A stretch of DNA of 40,687 nt from a virus (taxonomy: Duplodnaviria > Heunggongvirae > Uroviricota > Caudoviricetes), in the IMG/VR virus record IMGVR_UViG_2563366891_000016. One strand, written 5' to 3'. The position numbers and the translations under genes are program-made. Shown piece by piece: positions 1 to 40,311 of the stretch. How positions within the stretch are numbered: the first letter of the stretch is position 1; the number at the start of each line of letters is the position of its first letter. The notes under the pieces are model-generated. The model did no database searches. It was given only the letters and a program-made list of their open reading frames with translations, and was not told the DNA's origin.

Positions 1-957
1 ATGTCAGGTATAATTTCAAGTGCAACAGAATTCTTCAATAATACACTCCATTCAAATCAATACGAAATTAAAGATGCGAGCAAAGAAAAAATAAAGGATA
101 TATATAATAAATCGGTTGATTATGCAACTGCGAATAATCGCGATGTGATTATTGCAAAAATAGATTTATTTATTCAAAAAATCACCCTTAATTTATGGAC
201 AGCAAGTATCAAAAATGTGTCGTTAATCAGCAGAATAAATGAACTCAAACTGTGGGTCGATAAGTGTATTGATGACTGCTCTCAAGAGCAATTAGGCGAT
301 CGTGATTATATCGCTTTATATGTAGACAGGGCGATTTTTCATTATGCGATTAGTTTTGTCTGTAATAAAGTAGAACATCAGACAGTAAGTCTCATAGACA
401 GATGTACTTTTGATGTAGCAAGCCCGAATGGACTCCCATCAACTATTCAACTATTTTATGAAAAATCTATTGATGATGAATCTATAGCTTCGTTACATCT
501 ACAAACTTTAGGTGATGGTTTTATAAATTTAGAAAATGCATATCATCAATATGACGATATTCGCTTAAAACCCTTGGCTTCCCTTTTAATTTCATGTTCA
601 TATGGTAGTGCATTAGCAGATCTGGTAGCTGCAGTGGATATTGATGAGTATTGCGAAAAATACATAACAGATCAGGTGAAAACGTTATCTCAACAAGAGA
701 TGAAAAAAAATCTGAAGGAGATGAAAAATCTGGCAGTCGCAGGGAAACTGGATTTCAATGACATTGTAACTGATATGAAACGTCAGGAAGACGAAGGAAA
801 ACGAGTCCTAAAAGACGTTACAAAAATGCATGGTGCGGCGCAGAAATTAAATGACTTCGTACAATCGTGTGACCCAGATTCAACGGAATTGATTCAAATT
901 CCAAACGATATCTCTAATTCAATTTATGATCTATTTGGTATTGAACTAGTAAAATAA
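1..957 (+). CDS. AT-rich hypothetical protein on the host side of attL (318 aa); may correspond to the yjbL/yjbM region upstream of dusA
   Basis: Uninterrupted ORF from window position 1, strongly AT-rich, followed by an intrinsic terminator. The yjbL/yjbM correspondence rests only on position and recalled lengths (84+235 aa). Confidence 0.4.
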
Positions 958-1027: not shown

Positions 1028-1319
1028 CTCTATCAGTGCTATTAGCAGGGAGAGATATCACCGTAGTTTAATGTGTGATTTTTATTTATCGTCGAACCTG
1101 GATTGTTTATCATTGGCCTTAACAAAGCTAACGGCTAATAAGATTATTTCCATCACTTCGTGAGAGCTTCATGCCTTGAGAGGATCTCAATTTTCTTTTG
1201 CAATGAGACAGGCGCTTCCTGTTGTTATGGTATAGTACCCCGCTATTGAGCCTCCTGAACAGTGATGCTGAATAACATAACCCCATGATATATCGATAAA
1301 ATAATCTCTACATTTGAAA

Positions 1320-1445
1320 ATGCACGGTAATTCTGAAATGCAAAAAATCAACCAAACCAGCGCAATGCCTGAAAAAACTGACGTTCACTGGAGTGGTCGG
1401 TTTAGCGTTGCACCAATGCTCGATAGGATGTACCGTTTTTGAAAA
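1320..1445 (+). pseudogene. dusA: Displaced native 5' end of dusA (attL side), truncated to a 41-codon stub
   Basis: ATG at 1320 encodes MHGNSEMQKINQTSAMPEKTDVHWSGRFSVAPMLD then reads into phage DNA and stops; about 85% identical to the 5' end of the intact dusA at 39274. Homology ends abruptly after the shared atgctcga (1416-1423 / 39370-39377). Confidence 0.7.
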
Positions 1446-1567
1446 ACAAGTAGTTATACACTCTGTGGGAGCCTATTGGGAACCCGGCGTTTTCATTTCA
1501 AGGTGTAATCCATACGCGGCTTAAGAATGAGATATAATGCGATTTTTAGTGTTCCGCTTGAGAGGCC

Positions 1568-2104
1568 ATGATGCTTACCCTGGACGAGATAGGTCAATCA
1601 GTACGTAACAATATCCAGTTGATTATTGATCATGTCGGCTTACCTCTTGCTGTTGGTCCGCTCAGTGATGATGATTACAAGATTCTGTGTGGTGGCTATG
1701 GTGAGCTTGAATGGGACTATGCGTTAAGTACCTATGGCAACTCCAGAGAAAAGTATGAGTTCTGCATAAAACTTGTTCAGCAAGGTCGGGTTCAGGGAAT
1801 ACCATCAGGAGCAGCAATTTGTGTTTATGGGGTTGAAGAAAACATCTTTCGTATCCATATGATCGAAAGGTTTTCTAGAGAAGATGAATCTCACCCATTG
1901 AAAGGGCGCATGGTTTTACTCACTCTTATGAGTGCTTTTATATTTTGTAAAGCTGTTGAATGTAAAGTTGTCCACATTGTAGAGCCAGTACCAGAACTGG
2001 TGCAGTATTACGAGTCTTTTGGTTTCCGCATGGAACAGTGCGGTTATGTGATGTCGGCAGTCATTGATGAGCTGCAGGATATCTTTCTTAAATTTGCTCA
2101 GTAG
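1568..2104 (+). CDS. Hypothetical protein, possible GNAT-fold acyltransferase-like (178 aa)
   Basis: ORF with RBS gagagg and an upstream tataat-like -10. The C-terminal stretch AFIFCKAVECKVVHIVEPVPELVQYYESFGF resembles the GNAT motif B region, but no clear acetyl-CoA P-loop was seen. Confidence 0.45.
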   Translation: MMLTLDEIGQSVRNNIQLIIDHVGLPLAVGPLSDDDYKILCGGYGELEWDYALSTYGNSREKYEFCIKLVQQGRVQGIPSGAAICVYGVEENIFRIHMIERFSREDESHPLKGRMVLLTLMSAFIFCKAVECKVVHIVEPVPELVQYYESFGFRMEQCGYVMSAVIDELQDIFLKFAQ

Positions 2105-2300
2105 GTATAGACGAGAAGGGTCTACAAATTGTAGGATACCCGTCCAGATTACCTTAAAGGTACATCTATGGCAGTCGTTTTGTGCTTAAACTACTAAGAA
2201 ACGATGTCACCAATCGACATGATCGATTGGCATAAGTTAGCGAAACAAGCTAGCTTTAAAGAGAGGGTTAGAGACGCCTTTACTGTCTCGGGAGTTTTCT

Positions 2301-2474
2301 ATGAAAGATCAAAAAGCAACCAAGCCACAGGTTAAGTTCGACACAATGAAAGCATTCGCAGGTATGGGTGCTGCTGTTGAAGTTCTGATGAAGGCTGCTC
2401 CTAATGCGTTCACTCACGCTACTGTCTCTGGTAAAGAGCAGCAGGGTAAGCTTCGTCGTCGCAAAGCAGCATGA
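2301..2474 (+). CDS. Small basic-tailed protein (57 aa), below the ORF-track cutoff
   Basis: ATG at 2301 preceded by gggag RBS; translation MKDQKATKPQVKFDTMKAFAGMGAAVEVLMKAAPNAFTHATVSGKEQQGKLRRRKAA; immediately followed by a strong terminator. Confidence 0.4.
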   Translation: MKDQKATKPQVKFDTMKAFAGMGAAVEVLMKAAPNAFTHATVSGKEQQGKLRRRKAA

Positions 2475-2493
2475 TCATAGCTGGTGCTTTTTG

Positions 2494-2520
2494 AAAACCC
2501 GCCTTTAGGCGGGTTTTTTC
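2494..2520. terminator. Bidirectional intrinsic terminator between convergent genes
   Basis: Stem aaaacccgcc/ggcgggtttt with 4-nt loop, flanked by A-run upstream and T-run downstream. Confidence 0.7.
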
Positions 2521-2521
2521 T

Positions 2522-2830
2522 TTAGTGATGTTCTTTGCCCTTCTGTTTGCCTGTTCTGACCTGTTCCCACTCGATACGTCCTTCTTCTCGTCTTTTGTCT
2601 ATGTATTCCGCAAGATCCTGAATATTGATGCAACGTTTTGCTTTTTGTGATGTGCCGATGCGATATGTTGGAACGGGCAACTTACAAGCGTTTGCTTTTG
2701 CTTCTGCCGTGGCTGGACTCATGCCAAAGTACTTTTGGCTAACTGCTGAGAGTTCAATGTTAGGGGTATTGAATTCAGCCATCAGTAAAAACAAGGTGTT
2801 CATAATTTTCTCCATCAAAACCGGCTGCAC
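2522..2830 (-). CDS. Excisionase-like DNA-binding protein (PrtN/AlpA-like)
   Basis: 102-aa protein with KYFGMSPATAEAKANACKLPVPTYRIG and DLAEYIDKRREE, recalled as typical of PrtN-type small HTH proteins; last gene of the leftward early operon, next to attL. Confidence 0.45.
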   Translation of the reverse strand: MQPVLMEKIMNTLFLLMAEFNTPNIELSAVSQKYFGMSPATAEAKANACKLPVPTYRIGTSQKAKRCINIQDLAEYIDKRREEGRIEWEQVRTGKQKGKEHH

Positions 2831-4035: not shown

Positions 4036-4397
4036 TATGCTCCAGCCTCCGGCGCTTTTGGCATTACTGCCCAGTGAGTGATATTGAAGTTTTCAAGGTC
4101 CCCGACCTGAAATGTCCACTGCCATTCTCCGGTTTCTTTTTGTCCCCAGGTGTACCAGAGAGAACGCCAGCCAATCAGCCAGCCTTCTCCGTTAGCATCA
4201 AATAACAGAACACTTTCATTTGCTGGTGGCAGTTCAGCTGACACTGGTATTATTTTGTTTTCCAGTGCCGCACATTTAGCTTCAAGCGCGTCGAATTTAC
4301 GTACCAGGTACTCAGCATTTGTTTCATTCACTTTCAGATCTCGCGGTACACATTTCCCGCGAAGAAACCCTTCCATTTCGAAAACATTCATGCGCAT
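4035..4397 (-). CDS. yfdS: YfdS-like phage protein with DUF551-like motif (120 aa)
   Basis: 120 aa, matching the recalled length of CPS-53 YfdS; C-terminal HWAVMPKAPE; overlaps flanking genes. Confidence 0.45.
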   Translation of the reverse strand: MRMNVFEMEGFLRGKCVPRDLKVNETNAEYLVRKFDALEAKCAALENKIIPVSAELPPANESVLLFDANGEGWLIGWRSLWYTWGQKETGEWQWTFQVGDLENFNITHWAVMPKAPEAGA

Positions 4398-4924
4398 TTG
4401 CGTAACTCCGATAACTCGTTAAAACGTTCCATAAACATCCCGTAGGCATGACCCGGTGCCAGTGGAATCACGTTGAACATCTCTGTTGCCGGGATGCCTT
4501 CCAGTACAGGCCAGAAAGAGCCATCATCAAGCCCGAGATCGCGGCGTTCGGTTGCCAGCATGATAAGATCGGCATATTTCACGGGCGTACTCATAACTGG
4601 GGGTAACCCGTATTTCTCACGGATTACGGCGTCAATTTTTTCTTCCATCCGTTTATAGTCAGGAAGAAGGCGTTTCAGTGGAGCGGGAATATCCTGGCAA
4701 TACGCTTCTGTTGCATCATGCATTAACGCTTCAAAAGCAAATTCCTGCGGCACCAGCTGGCTGCAAAGCACCGCATGTTGGGCGACACTGTAGAAGTGAG
4801 AAAGATGACCGGCAAAGCGGCAGATATTTGAAAGGGAAACCGCGATATCGTTAATCACGATGTCGTCTTTATTTATCTTGTCATAATAAAAATGCTTCCC
4901 GGAAAAAGTTTTAATAAATGACAT
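4388..4924 (-). CDS. yfdR: HD-domain phosphohydrolase (YfdR-like, 178 aa from MSFIK start)
   Basis: H...HD metal-binding motif (HAVLCSQLV...EALMHDATE); ATG at 4922-4924 with ggag RBS 7 nt upstream gives 178 aa, the recalled length of CPS-53 YfdR. Confidence 0.55.
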   Translation of the reverse strand: MSFIKTFSGKHFYYDKINKDDIVINDIAVSLSNICRFAGHLSHFYSVAQHAVLCSQLVPQEFAFEALMHDATEAYCQDIPAPLKRLLPDYKRMEEKIDAVIREKYGLPPVMSTPVKYADLIMLATERRDLGLDDGSFWPVLEGIPATEMFNVIPLAPGHAYGMFMERFNELSELRKCA

Positions 4925-5051
4925 TTTGTTCTCCACGTATATGCGCTGCACCGCGCTGAGTTTGGGTAAAAGGAAGCCCTCACCATCCGGTGATTATTGA
5001 GTTAATTACGTTTCCATAAATGCCCCCGCAGGGGCATTTGCAGTAATGAAA

Positions 5052-5941: not shown

Positions 5942-6304
5942 TTAATGACCTGCTGCGCGTAGTTTTCCGTCAGGTTCACCGGCAAGAGTCAGTAATTGTC
6001 CCTGGTCTTCCTGCAGAATAGTCAGGCGACCACCGCGATTGACATACATCGGCGTTTCGGTGGTGTCTTCTTCGGAAATTTTCCCGCGGTTAGTCGGGCG
6101 AACATATGAGAGTTTGTGTTTGATTTTCACACGGTTCTCATCAAATGGTTCGATTTCCAGGTTGAGTGAGACCTTACCTTTGGTTTTCGTGTTCATCACA
6201 CCGGAAGCGACTTCACTGAGAACAGCGCCGATTTTGGTTTCAAATACGCCGCCGTCCAGCTCCCCGATAAATGCCTGCACATCAGTACTGCGTTCGCTAG
6301 CCAT
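5942..6304 (-). CDS. yfdP: YfdP-like protein (120 aa), start at MASERS
   Basis: ATG at 6302-6304 preceded by GAGGAG 7 nt upstream; 120 aa as recalled for YfdP. The longer track ORF to 6532 starts at GTG inside a structured non-coding region. Confidence 0.5.
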   Translation of the reverse strand: MASERSTDVQAFIGELDGGVFETKIGAVLSEVASGVMNTKTKGKVSLNLEIEPFDENRVKIKHKLSYVRPTNRGKISEEDTTETPMYVNRGGRLTILQEDQGQLLTLAGEPDGKLRAAGH

Positions 6305-6440
6305 TTTGCTGCTCCTCATCATATCGACCCTGCAAGGTCGGTTAGTTTCTCCACAAAACAGAGAAGAACACCTGCGGTGGCAGCCGCCCGGATGGATTGG
6401 GTTATGAGCCCGTCGTCCGGTGATGCTCTTCTCTGTTTTG

Positions 6441-6486
6441 TAAAAAGAGCGGTACCAGCCGGAAGCAAGGGTACAAACTGGTACCG
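6441..6486 (-). terminator. Intrinsic terminator on the minus strand
   Basis: 9-bp stem cggtaccag/ctggtaccg (6450-6458 / 6478-6486) with 19-nt loop, followed on the minus strand by ctcttttta. Confidence 0.45.
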
Positions 6487-6547
6487 CCAGGACTACACAC
6501 AGCAATGAAACTATTGCCTGTCTTTTCACCACTTCAGGCTCGGTGGT

Positions 6548-38087: not shown

Positions 38088-39185
38088 TCAAGAGGTCTTA
38101 TTTCTGCTCCTTTGGAGCTCTTCAAAACGATTATGTAAAGATTTCGGATACAGTTCGGTATATACCTGCCATAGCACGTTTAATGAACGATGCCCTGTAA
38201 CTTGGGCGACTTCCTCAATACTAAAACCAGCCTCAAATAAGCGACTTGCCCCTTCTCTACGCAAATCATGGTATCGCAGATCTTTAATACCTAATTTGCT
38301 TCTTACCCTCTGAAATCCCGCAGTAACAGAAGTGCTGTTATATGGAAAAATGAATTCCGATTTTTGGGGCTGTCGTTGGACGATATCCCAGGCTTCCCCA
38401 AGCAAGGCTACTTTCATGTGGTTGCCTTCCTTTTTGCGTGGATCTTTCCTGTCTCTTACGAGTATAGATTTTTGTTCTTGGTCGAGATCTTCCCATCGTA
38501 ACCGGCATACTTCTCCGATTCGCATACAGGACCACACAGAAAATTTGAGGATATCAACGAACGGAATTTTTGAGCATTTATGAGTAGATCGTTGTTGAAG
38601 GCCTTCAATGAGCATGTCCAGTTCATCAGATGCTGGTCTACGATTACGACGGTTTGATTTACCAATCAAACCAAGTTTAAGTAGATATGGACGAGCGCTT
38701 TTCGCTGGGTTTGATGTGTAATTAATTCCGTATACAGGTTTGGCTGCATCCAGAACACTGCCAAGATAACTAACATCGTGGCTGACTGTTGCTGGACCTG
38801 CACCAGCGTTGTTTCTTAGCCTGCAATGTTCAATTACGTCATTTTCGGTCAGTTCGGATAGTTTGATCGCGGAGATGTCACTATCCATAAGCAGTTCCAG
38901 CACATATCTTTTAGTACGGCCTGCTTTACCTCCGGCATTTGGGTCATTTAAATATTTGTGTAGTAAGTCACGGACTGTAAGTCCGTCAACTGCATTTGAT
39001 GATGGAATGCCATATAGATCTAATTCCATCACTTTCTGTGTACCCCATGTTTTGGCATGGGCATGTTTAGGGAATGTTTTGCTTTCCCTGTAAGTGATAA
39101 CACCTTTTTCTTTGATAATCACATTACAGCGATAGCGTGGTGTGCCATCGGATTTTAGTCGTTTCTCTATGTTATAGTACGCCAT
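38088..39185 (-). CDS. int: Tyrosine site-specific integrase (dusA-associated type)
   Basis: 365-aa protein with a candidate catalytic R...HxxR...Y arrangement (RIGE, HDLRR, C-terminal Y); encoded directly next to attR and the phage-supplied dusA 5' end. Confidence 0.85.
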   Translation of the reverse strand: MAYYNIEKRLKSDGTPRYRCNVIIKEKGVITYRESKTFPKHAHAKTWGTQKVMELDLYGIPSSNAVDGLTVRDLLHKYLNDPNAGGKAGRTKRYVLELLMDSDISAIKLSELTENDVIEHCRLRNNAGAGPATVSHDVSYLGSVLDAAKPVYGINYTSNPAKSARPYLLKLGLIGKSNRRNRRPASDELDMLIEGLQQRSTHKCSKIPFVDILKFSVWSCMRIGEVCRLRWEDLDQEQKSILVRDRKDPRKKEGNHMKVALLGEAWDIVQRQPQKSEFIFPYNSTSVTAGFQRVRSKLGIKDLRYHDLRREGASRLFEAGFSIEEVAQVTGHRSLNVLWQVYTELYPKSLHNRFEELQRSRNKTS

Positions 39186-39273: not shown

Positions 39274-40311
39274 ATGCACGATAATCCTGAAACACAGAAA
39301 ACTAATCAAACCAGCGTGATGCCTGAAAAAACTGGCGCTTACTGGAGTTCCCGGTTTAGCATTGCTCCTATGCTCGACTGGACGGACAGACATTGCCGCT
39401 ATTTCTTGCGTCTGCTTTCCCGCAATACGTTGCTGTATACCGAAATGGTGACTACAGGGGCGATTATTCACGGTAAAGGTGATTACCTGGCGTACAGTGA
39501 AGAAGAACATCCGGTAGCATTGCAACTGGGCGGTAGCGATCCGGCGGCGCTGGCGCAGTGTGCAAAGCTGGCAGAAGCGCGCGGATATGATGAGATCAAC
39601 CTGAATGTCGGCTGCCCGTCTGACCGGGTGCAGAACGGCATGTTTGGGGCGTGTCTGATGGGTAATGCGCAGCTGGTTGCCGACTGCGTGAAAGCGATGC
39701 GCGATGTGGTGTCGATTCCGGTGACGGTGAAAACGCGTATTGGCATCGACGACCAGGACAGCTATGAATTTCTCTGCGATTTCATCAACACCGTTTCCGG
39801 CAAAGGCGAGTGTGAGATGTTCATCATCCACGCACGTAAAGCCTGGCTTTCGGGGTTAAGCCCGAAAGAAAACCGTGAAATCCCGCCGCTCGATTATCCG
39901 CGTGTGTATCAACTGAAGCGTGACTTTCCGCATCTGACAATGTCGATTAACGGTGGCATCAAGTCGCTGGAAGAGGCTAAAGCGCATTTGCAACATATGG
40001 ATGGCGTGATGGTCGGGCGCGAAGCGTATCAGAATCCGGGTATTCTGGCGGCGGTAGACCGAGAGATCTTTGGTTCCTCGGATACCGATGCCGATCCGGT
40101 GGCGGTAGTGCGCGCCATGTATCCGTACATTGAGCGTGAACTCAGCCAGGGGACGTATCTTGGCCATATTACCCGGCATATGCTGGGCTTGTTCCAGGGT
40201 ATTCCTGGCGCGCGGCAGTGGCGGCGTTATTTAAGTGAAAATGCCCATAAAGCGGGTGCAGACATTAATGTGCTGGAACACGCGCTCAAACTGGTGGCGG
40301 ATAAGCGTTAA
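39274..40311 (+). CDS. dusA: tRNA-dihydrouridine synthase A, with phage-supplied 5' end
   Basis: 345-aa ORF with the DusA TIM-barrel sequence as recalled ([13 protein letters not shown] ... NLNVGCPS ... VKTRIG); the first ~35 codons belong to the prophage arm. Confidence 0.9.
39320..39377 (+). other. attR crossover region within the dusA 5' end
   Basis: Identical blocks shared with attL (atgcctgaaaaaactg, atgctcga); homology ends at 39377 on this side and at 1423 on the attL side. Confidence 0.55.

Follow-up and report, generated by a model that had tools for sequence, protein, structure and literature searches.

Near the left end of a lambdoid prophage, we identified a self-contained two-gene cassette encoding a very divergent protein with a confidently predicted GNAT fold (gene A) and a basic protein of 57 amino acids (aa; gene B). 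The stretch analyzed, referred to here as the window, is the whole 40,687-nucleotide (nt) sequence of IMG/VR record IMGVR_UViG_2563366891_000016. It holds a complete mEp460-like prophage integrated at dusA in Escherichia coli, with the cassette (positions 1568-2520) lying between attL and the excisionase gene xis. We tentatively propose a toxin-antitoxin or abortive-infection-like function for A-B, which would be a new module with A as the effector and B as its labile inhibitor, a reading that we consider plausible but somewhat short of probable. It is based on the strict linkage of A to B, the mobility of the pair, and its interchangeability with Panacea and YafO pairs at a hotspot.

The first-pass annotation had placed two open reading frames (ORFs) between the excisionase gene and attL; both are present on the plus strand, and RefSeq annotates both as coding sequences for hypothetical proteins. 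Starting at the ATG at 1568, A would have 178 aa; RefSeq and nearly all homologs use the second ATG, at 1571, which gives 177 aa. In moderately diverged pairs, the ratio of nonsynonymous to synonymous substitution rates (dN/dS) is ~0.04 for A and 0.04-0.19 for B, i.e., both are under strong purifying selection, and B is therefore a real coding gene. The suggestion that the pairing is an undescribed one also stood. The two PHROGs, phrog_4350 (A) and phrog_2741 (B), are of unknown function only, neither protein has a match at E<=1 in Pfam, NCBIfam, or PADLOC, and their accessions appear in no paper that we found; literature searches by protein accession, mEp460, dusA hotspot, GNAT, and anti-phage returned no description of either gene. 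That A and B are conserved core phage genes of known function, or spurious ORFs, is extremely improbable. Adjacency to xis is the only point in favor of this view, which is contradicted by the purifying selection, by the PHROGs, by the presence of the cassette in unrelated phage modules, and by genome counts: of 5,426 complete E. coli genomes, 741 carry this type of xis, 562 carry B, and 358 carry A (O157:H7 and O111 strains being numerous among the last), so the cassette is missing from many related dusA prophages.

We assembled 177 loci from reference genomes, IMG/VR, and public assemblies. A and B occur together in 156 of them and B occurs alone in 21; A is never alone, and every copy is full length. 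Wherever A is present (156/156 loci), B follows on the same strand, 94-257 nt downstream. Nucleotide clustering of the flanks gave at least 17 groups upstream of the cassette and at least 14 downstream of it. Its contexts include the att-proximal attL-xis interval of dusA prophages in E. coli and Salmonella, the interval between the Q antiterminator and holin genes in several lambdoid lineages, the inside of a Photorhabdus myovirus tail module, chromosomal islets in Pseudescherichia, and a Shewanella prophage. The genera in which it was found also include Enterobacter, Citrobacter, Cronobacter, Edwardsiella, Serratia, and Xenorhabdus, and the index of an assembly collection lists the Salmonella form of B in more than a thousand blocks. 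Movement as a block across at least 14 contexts, together with its own promoter-like elements and terminator, bears out the earlier view that the cassette is a self-contained unit.

Linkage persists down to 40% identity of A, and remote relatives of A (E 1e-10 to 1e-4) also precede small basic ORFs. Profile comparison of those ORFs with B was not significant, only a G-x-E-x-x-G-[KR]-x-R motif being aligned. These data bear on the possibility that A and B are two independent genes sharing one small mobile block, with B or its mRNA acting as a stand-alone regulator, e.g., a dual-function RNA. B does have a promoter-like element and a terminator of its own, it remains in the dusA backbone after replacement of A, and nucleotide conservation of its leader and 5' portion exceeds what the protein would need. 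However, the linkage holds in every context examined, extends to the gene order of the remote relatives, and is accompanied by a charge complementarity that is conserved in the core family. We give independence little credence.

Three loci are worth recording individually. In Xenorhabdus kozodoii (L021; 5105-5950, 7059-9815), ~1.1 kb separates A-B from a gene encoding Cas3, with Cas3_HD and C-terminal Cas3 domains; this is a defense-type neighborhood outside any obvious prophage. Phage Eeyore (PP925821, L003) has an unannotated B homolog of 53 aa at 4798-4959, where the record calls several short overlapping ORFs. P0140, a metagenomic remote relative of A with 246 aa, has a C-terminal extension with an internal Met start and a PKGEAAGKR motif like the tail of B; it could represent a fusion of A with B or else an artifact of assembly or frameshifting, and profile comparison of its tail with B was not significant.

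The first-pass annotation had raised the possibility that the cassette is variable cargo, and comparison of dusA prophages confirmed that it is not part of the phage core. Three alternative alleles were found between the dusA remnant and xis: a SocA_Panacea protein and a 139-aa protein followed by B (SKA5 and Lys8385Vzw type), a second Panacea pair without B, and a 189-aa protein with a YafO-family toxin. Every non-A-B allele found is a two-gene, same-strand, toxin-antitoxin-type module. The attL-xis slot is a toxin-antitoxin hotspot, which makes a toxin-antitoxin, exclusion, or defense function of A-B more likely. One Salmonella dusA prophage (L183) has an extra gene between B and xis (4381-4848, minus strand), encoding an HTH_31 domain and two transmembrane segments, which is more cargo variation in the same hotspot.

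The alleles also bear on the direction of dependence between the two genes. Homology of the window to the SKA5-type prophage stops at ~1485, and the swapped segment (1486 to ~2290) replaces A, the A promoter, the B promoter, and the leader; the other breakpoint falls ~10 nt before the Shine-Dalgarno (SD) sequence of B, so that this SD, the B ORF, the 3' untranslated region (UTR), and the terminator are kept. B without A, with SD and ORF intact, occurs in ~200 E. coli genomes. Separately, one O111:H8 strain carries IS1203 at about codon 48 of A and has the promoter, leader, and gene of B intact. A was found at no locus without B, whereas B can exist in the absence of A, even when its native promoter is retained. 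This asymmetry favors A as the effector and B as the restraint. Reversed roles and simple independence fit less well.

Another explanation is that A-B is a non-toxic accessory ("moron") enzyme with a small partner, without any addiction or suicide logic. A might then acylate a basic protein of the host or of an incoming phage, a polyamine, a compound resembling an aminoglycoside, or its partner B; B would be a specificity subunit, a substrate, or a regulator, and the benefit could be lysogenic conversion, superinfection exclusion, or anti-defense. We regard this as rather unlikely, though it deserves to be taken seriously, because all alternative alleles in the dusA slot are toxin-antitoxin pairs and because the pair is kept intact in decayed prophages. 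In O157:H7 EC4115 (L178), A and B (1504-2407) are intact in a prophage whose exonuclease gene is truncated and whose methyltransferase gene has an internal stop. Such persistence in decayed O157:H7 remnants favors the toxin-antitoxin-like reading. Two properties of B described below also argue against a moron: it has no invariant lysine, and a simple cofactor would not need its elaborate translational control and degron-like tail.

AlphaFold, run with a 30-sequence alignment, returned a confident model of A (predicted local distance difference test [pLDDT] 89.4, predicted template modeling score 0.87). The model has the canonical GNAT topology beta1-alpha1-alpha2-beta2-4-alpha3-beta5-alpha4-beta6, with an additional N-terminal and C-terminal helix. 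Foldseek matched it to 280 PDB chains at E<=1e-3; all matches listed are GNATs, with Gcn5, SpeG, AtaT, TacT3, TacT2, and KacT among them. The GNAT-like character that had been noticed in the C-terminal motif extends to the predicted structure, and we are confident that the modeled fold is that of a GNAT, albeit a very divergent one. Invariant positions, at places that catalytic and cofactor residues usually take in GNATs, are I96-H97-x-x-E100-x-F102 in beta4, Y148-x-x-x-G152-F153 (YYxSFGF) in alpha4, and, save for K112 and R114, the beta4-alpha3 loop H109-P-L-K-G113-R-M115; of these residues, H97, E100, and Y148 occupy the usual catalytic positions of GNATs.

At the sequence level, no curated GNAT model recognizes A, ten remote relatives that might have connected it to a named GNAT family had no Pfam match, and sequence-profile searches of the PDB with A and B gave chance matches only (gp41, armadillo, and DARPin designs). 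The family of A is a small one: clustered at 50% identity, it has 93 representatives. Throughout its core, A is acidic, with an isoelectric point (pI) of 4.3-5.5 and a net charge of -4 to -18 (-10 for the product here), and its target is therefore more likely to be a basic protein or a small molecule than tRNA. Charge complementarity between A and B as a universal property was rejected, since its two most distant relatives, P0156 and P0177, are basic.

B is a very different protein. AlphaFold2 predicts one helix (residues 15-37) with disordered flanks (pLDDT 61). The helix is amphipathic, the protein is not hydrophobic, and its pI is 9.4-10.8 across the core family. Only G23, L29, P34, E46, and G49 are invariant family-wide, the last two lying in a tail that reads E46-Q-Q-G49-K-L-R-R-R-K-A-A in the window. 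No lysine is invariant across the family, which favors the role of an inhibitor or partner over that of an obligate acetyl acceptor. The C-termini of family members (RRRKAA, SKKAVA, RMRKAAA, RSRKVAA, and RRKAKAA) resemble the C-motif-2 degrons recognized by ClpX, such as MuA RRKKAI and YbaQ RAKKVA (PMC9775585, Table 2), and their ends are like C-motif-1. This resemblance suggests that the C-terminus of B is a ClpX degron, in which case B would probably be short-lived.

Each gene appears to have its own expression signals. The first-pass annotation had credited the cassette with its own -10 element and ribosome-binding site, and we found both upstream of A: a perfect -10 (TATAAT, 1533-1538), 32 nt before the A start, and the SD GAGAGG (1558-1563). 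Cassettes of unrelated contexts likewise have a -10, GGTACAAT or GATATAAT, at a fixed spacing of ~30-36 nt before the ATG; a promoter scan of the window detected no good -35 for A. The annotation had not included a promoter-like element of B at 2108-2137, which begins 4 nt past the A stop codon. Its hexamers (TAGACG-N17/18-TA[G/C]GAT) are invariant in 15/15 diverged cassettes, in which the spacer length varies. It scores 8/12 against consensus, below the scan threshold, and it is the conservation that points to a promoter of B. No promoter-like site was detected by the scan on the minus strand within B or its leader.

Between this element and B lies a structured leader of ~160 nt, within an A-B spacer that is 196 nt here. 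The leader folds better than shuffled sequences (z = -3.0). Three of its helices are 93.7% paired across the 15 sequences, vs 16-43% when the partners are slid, six pairs have changed on both sides, and the many G.U pairs are workable only on the plus strand. A fourth hairpin, GAGAC...GTCTC (2271-2289), abuts the SD of B. With its own promoter-like element and structured leader, B can therefore be expressed at a different level from A. No Rfam family reached its gathering score anywhere in the window, permissive E-values on the cassette yielding only sub-threshold terminator look-alikes, and no tRNA or tmRNA was found. The leader also contains a 43-aa ORF (2204-2335, plus strand) that overlaps the B start and has no Pfam, PHROGs, PADLOC, or NCBIfam match; because indels in the leader alignment break its frame, it is probably not coding.

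Downstream of B, a conserved 3' UTR, TCATAGCTGGTGCTTTTTG, and an intrinsic terminator form the right edge of the cassette. They are kept in all contexts, and the sequence diverges directly after the T-run. The terminator had been described as strong and bidirectional. It is strong, with an 11-bp stem and T-run at 2493-2518, but the scan matched it only on the plus strand and so does not support bidirectionality. RNAalifold pairs B codons 4-9 with the conserved 3' UTR (2475-2492), including one compensatory A-U to G-C change. Support for this fold-back is weak, as duplex energies are no better than those of shuffled sequences and distant members show no evidence of it. Third codon positions of the 15 cassettes differ sharply between the genes: those of A are nearly saturated (invariant in 6/177 codons), whereas those of B are invariant in 26/57 codons, including 24 of the first 35 (2301-2405). 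Together, the synonymous-site constraint and the predicted 3' UTR pairing suggest an extra, RNA-level function of the B transcript.

These features could also be read with the roles exchanged: B would be a small basic toxin held down by its structured mRNA, and A an antitoxin that acetylates it, as in type VII systems, or sequesters it. The long leader, SD hairpin, possible fold-back, and synonymous constraint over codons 1-35 recall tightly repressed small toxins. Moreover, the Panacea and YafO alleles of the slot have the antitoxin first and the toxin second, B is the more conserved partner, and GNATs are commonly detoxifying enzymes. Against this stand the ~200 E. coli genomes that carry B with an intact SD and ORF but no A, and the IS1203-disrupted strain, which keeps the B promoter and leader. 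Nor is B hydrophobic, it offers no invariant lysine for acetylation, and its degron-like tail is more in keeping with a labile protein than with a stable one. We therefore judge an exchange of roles improbable.

Returning to the reading in which A is the effector restrained by B, we suggest the following mechanism. A, as an acidic, highly divergent GNAT-fold acyltransferase, would probably acylate a basic cellular or phage target, not tRNA. B would restrain it as a pseudosubstrate: the conserved C-terminal tail of B, E-x-x-G-[KR]-x-[KR], would dock in the substrate groove of A, and the central helix would serve as an anchor. B would be made from its own promoter via the structured leader, which may gate its ribosome-binding site, and would be short-lived, probably through its ClpX degron-like C-terminus; if B synthesis stopped, as upon phage takeover or loss of the element, A would be freed. 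A pseudosubstrate inhibitor with fast turnover fits the charge complementarity, the disorder of B, the E-x-x-G-[KR] tail without an invariant lysine, the degron-like end, the separate promoter, and the gated SD. In its most specific form, this proposal describes a new class in which a Pfam-invisible acidic GNAT acylates a basic protein rather than tRNA, restrained by a 57-residue pseudosubstrate whose supply is set by a promoter, a ~160-nt riboregulatory leader, and a ClpX-type degron. We offer that version as a speculation, more doubtful than not. The leader-B unit may be a reusable part, since it persists downstream of a Panacea toxin-antitoxin pair. The proposal builds on what the data show, namely the predicted GNAT fold of A, the coding status of B, the strict linkage across contexts, the promoter-like element and structured leader, the toxin-antitoxin nature of the other alleles in the slot, and the tolerance of B without A; that A is an active and toxic enzyme, that it forms a complex with B, that B is unstable, and that the pair acts against phages would be inferences from these.

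Several observations weigh against a toxin-antitoxin or abortive-infection-like module. First, the structural similarity of A to GNAT toxins is not specific, and none of the three ORFs (A, B, and the 43-aa one in the leader) has a defense-protein match in PADLOC-DB v2 at E<=1. Second, the acetyl-coenzyme A (acetyl-CoA) loop of A, HPLKGRM, is degenerate relative to Q/R-x-x-G-x-G/A, only the central Gly fitting, so enzymatic activity is not assured; the two most distant relatives of A (P0156 and P0177) are, in addition, basic. Third, B is far more conserved than A (~90% vs ~70% identity), at synonymous sites too, which is the reverse of the usual antitoxin pattern, and neither Pfam nor the predicted structure reveals a recognizable DNA-binding domain in B for autoregulation. 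Fourth, a structured spacer of 94-257 nt separates the genes, and there is no translational coupling. Lastly, the occurrence of B without A comes down to essentially one recombination event and one IS insertion.

The coordinates of the cassette and its surroundings are collected in Table 1. A and B are convergent with the early-left operon on the minus strand, which comprises genes for the PrtN-family excisionase, a 3'-5' exonuclease, DUF551, Ea22-like, YfdR, YfdQ, and YfdP proteins; DinI is encoded at the right prophage end with the integrase and the restored dusA. Phage mEp460 carries the cassette between attP and xis, identical at the protein level. Upstream of the dusA remnant, the host DUF2713-family gene (1-957, plus strand) is intact in the window and frameshifted in several other prophage-carrying genomes. 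Positions 6449-6469 (plus strand), within or antisense to a YfdP-like ORF (5942-6532, minus strand), match 21 nt of sRNA-17 exactly. This small RNA of 193 nt, repressed by ArcA, was described in E. coli K1 RS218, which encodes it in an mEp460-like prophage and has higher yfdP and yfdR transcript levels when it is deleted (PMC7719688). The sRNA-17 gene is probably present in the window, outside the cassette; as a component of the cassette it was rejected on account of its position.

Table 1. Positions of the A-B cassette and of flanking features in the window
Feature	Position	Strand	Remarks
Displaced, truncated original dusA 5' end, attL side	1314-1442	+	ORF translation matches DusA N-terminus; RefSeq: partial tRNA-dihydrouridine synthase pseudogene
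Promoter region of A, left edge of swappable cargo	1486-1567	+	-10 TATAAT 1533-1538; SD GAGAGG 1558-1563
Gene A	1571-2104	+	177 aa; acidic, divergent predicted GNAT-fold protein; phrog_4350
Promoter-like element of B	2108-2137	+	TAGACG (-35-like)-N18-TAGGAT (-10-like); begins 4 nt past A stop codon
Structured 5' leader of B, ~160 nt	2144-2300	+	Hairpins 2150-2162, 2210-2230, 2234-2257, 2271-2289
Gene B	2301-2474	+	57 aa; pI 10.5; phrog_2741; SD GGAG at 2291-2294
Conserved 3' UTR and intrinsic terminator, right cassette edge	2475-2518	+	Terminator 2493-2518
PrtN-family excisionase (xis), convergent with gene B	2522-2830	-	Pfam PF11112, E 4e-23; phrog_1300 "excisionase"
Tyrosine integrase, right end of window	38088-39185	-	
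Restored dusA, right end of window	39274-40311		

Both proteins are "hypothetical" everywhere and are missed by Pfam, NCBIfam, and PADLOC, despite the presence of A in 358/5,426 complete E. coli genomes. If the pair is a toxin-antitoxin or defense module, it would extend GNAT-based systems beyond the DUF1778 paradigm, B would represent a mini-antitoxin of a novel type, controlled at the RNA level, and the dusA attL-xis slot would be a readable hotspot for discovering further systems. If it is non-toxic, A would be a widespread prophage-borne acyltransferase that modifies a host or phage target.

Among known systems, the closest are the type II GNAT-RHH (DUF1778) systems TacAT, AtaRT, KacAT, and ItaRT (PMC9177977, PMC7470980), which are likewise two-gene mobile modules with a GNAT-fold protein of ~175 aa. 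AtaR and TacA block the active site with a disordered C-terminal region, and the predicted disordered C-terminal region of B could plausibly do the same. The differences are nonetheless substantial, and the earlier remark that the cassette departs from the classical GNAT-RHH layout proved correct. GNAT-RHH antitoxins have an RHH/DUF1778 domain, whereas B has none (no Pfam match; one helix and disordered tails predicted). Their antitoxin gene lies upstream in an overlapping operon, whereas here the large gene A comes first, with a 196-nt gap and a separate promoter-like element before B. Unlike the GNAT-RHH toxins, A is strongly acidic, falls outside all Pfam GNAT models, and is less conserved than its partner; those toxins acetylate aminoacyl-tRNA, for which a basic RNA-binding surface is expected, and the net charge of A argues against a polyanionic substrate. 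The cassette may work like a GNAT-RHH system but is not a member, the fold being the only defining feature shared.

Type I systems come to mind because, like a hok-like mRNA, the B transcript has a small ORF, a long structured leader, an SD hairpin, and a 3' UTR that is predicted to pair with the 5' coding region. B differs in being basic and soluble-looking rather than hydrophobic, the scan showed no antisense promoter, and support for the fold-back is weak. Type VII systems, e.g., HepT/MntA, also combine an enzyme with a small partner, and by analogy B could conceivably be the acetylation target of A; however, the systems are not homologous, none of the lysines of B is invariant, and the tolerance of B alone does not suit a modified toxin. 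The Panacea (PanA/SocA-domain) and YafO-type pairs have no sequence or domain relationship to A or B, but they share their position between attL and xis, their strand, and their two-gene format, as interchangeable cargo, and the SKA5-type Panacea allele even retains B downstream. With type II systems in general, A-B shares the arrangement of two adjacent, co-oriented genes mobilized as a unit (156/156 loci, at least 14 contexts).

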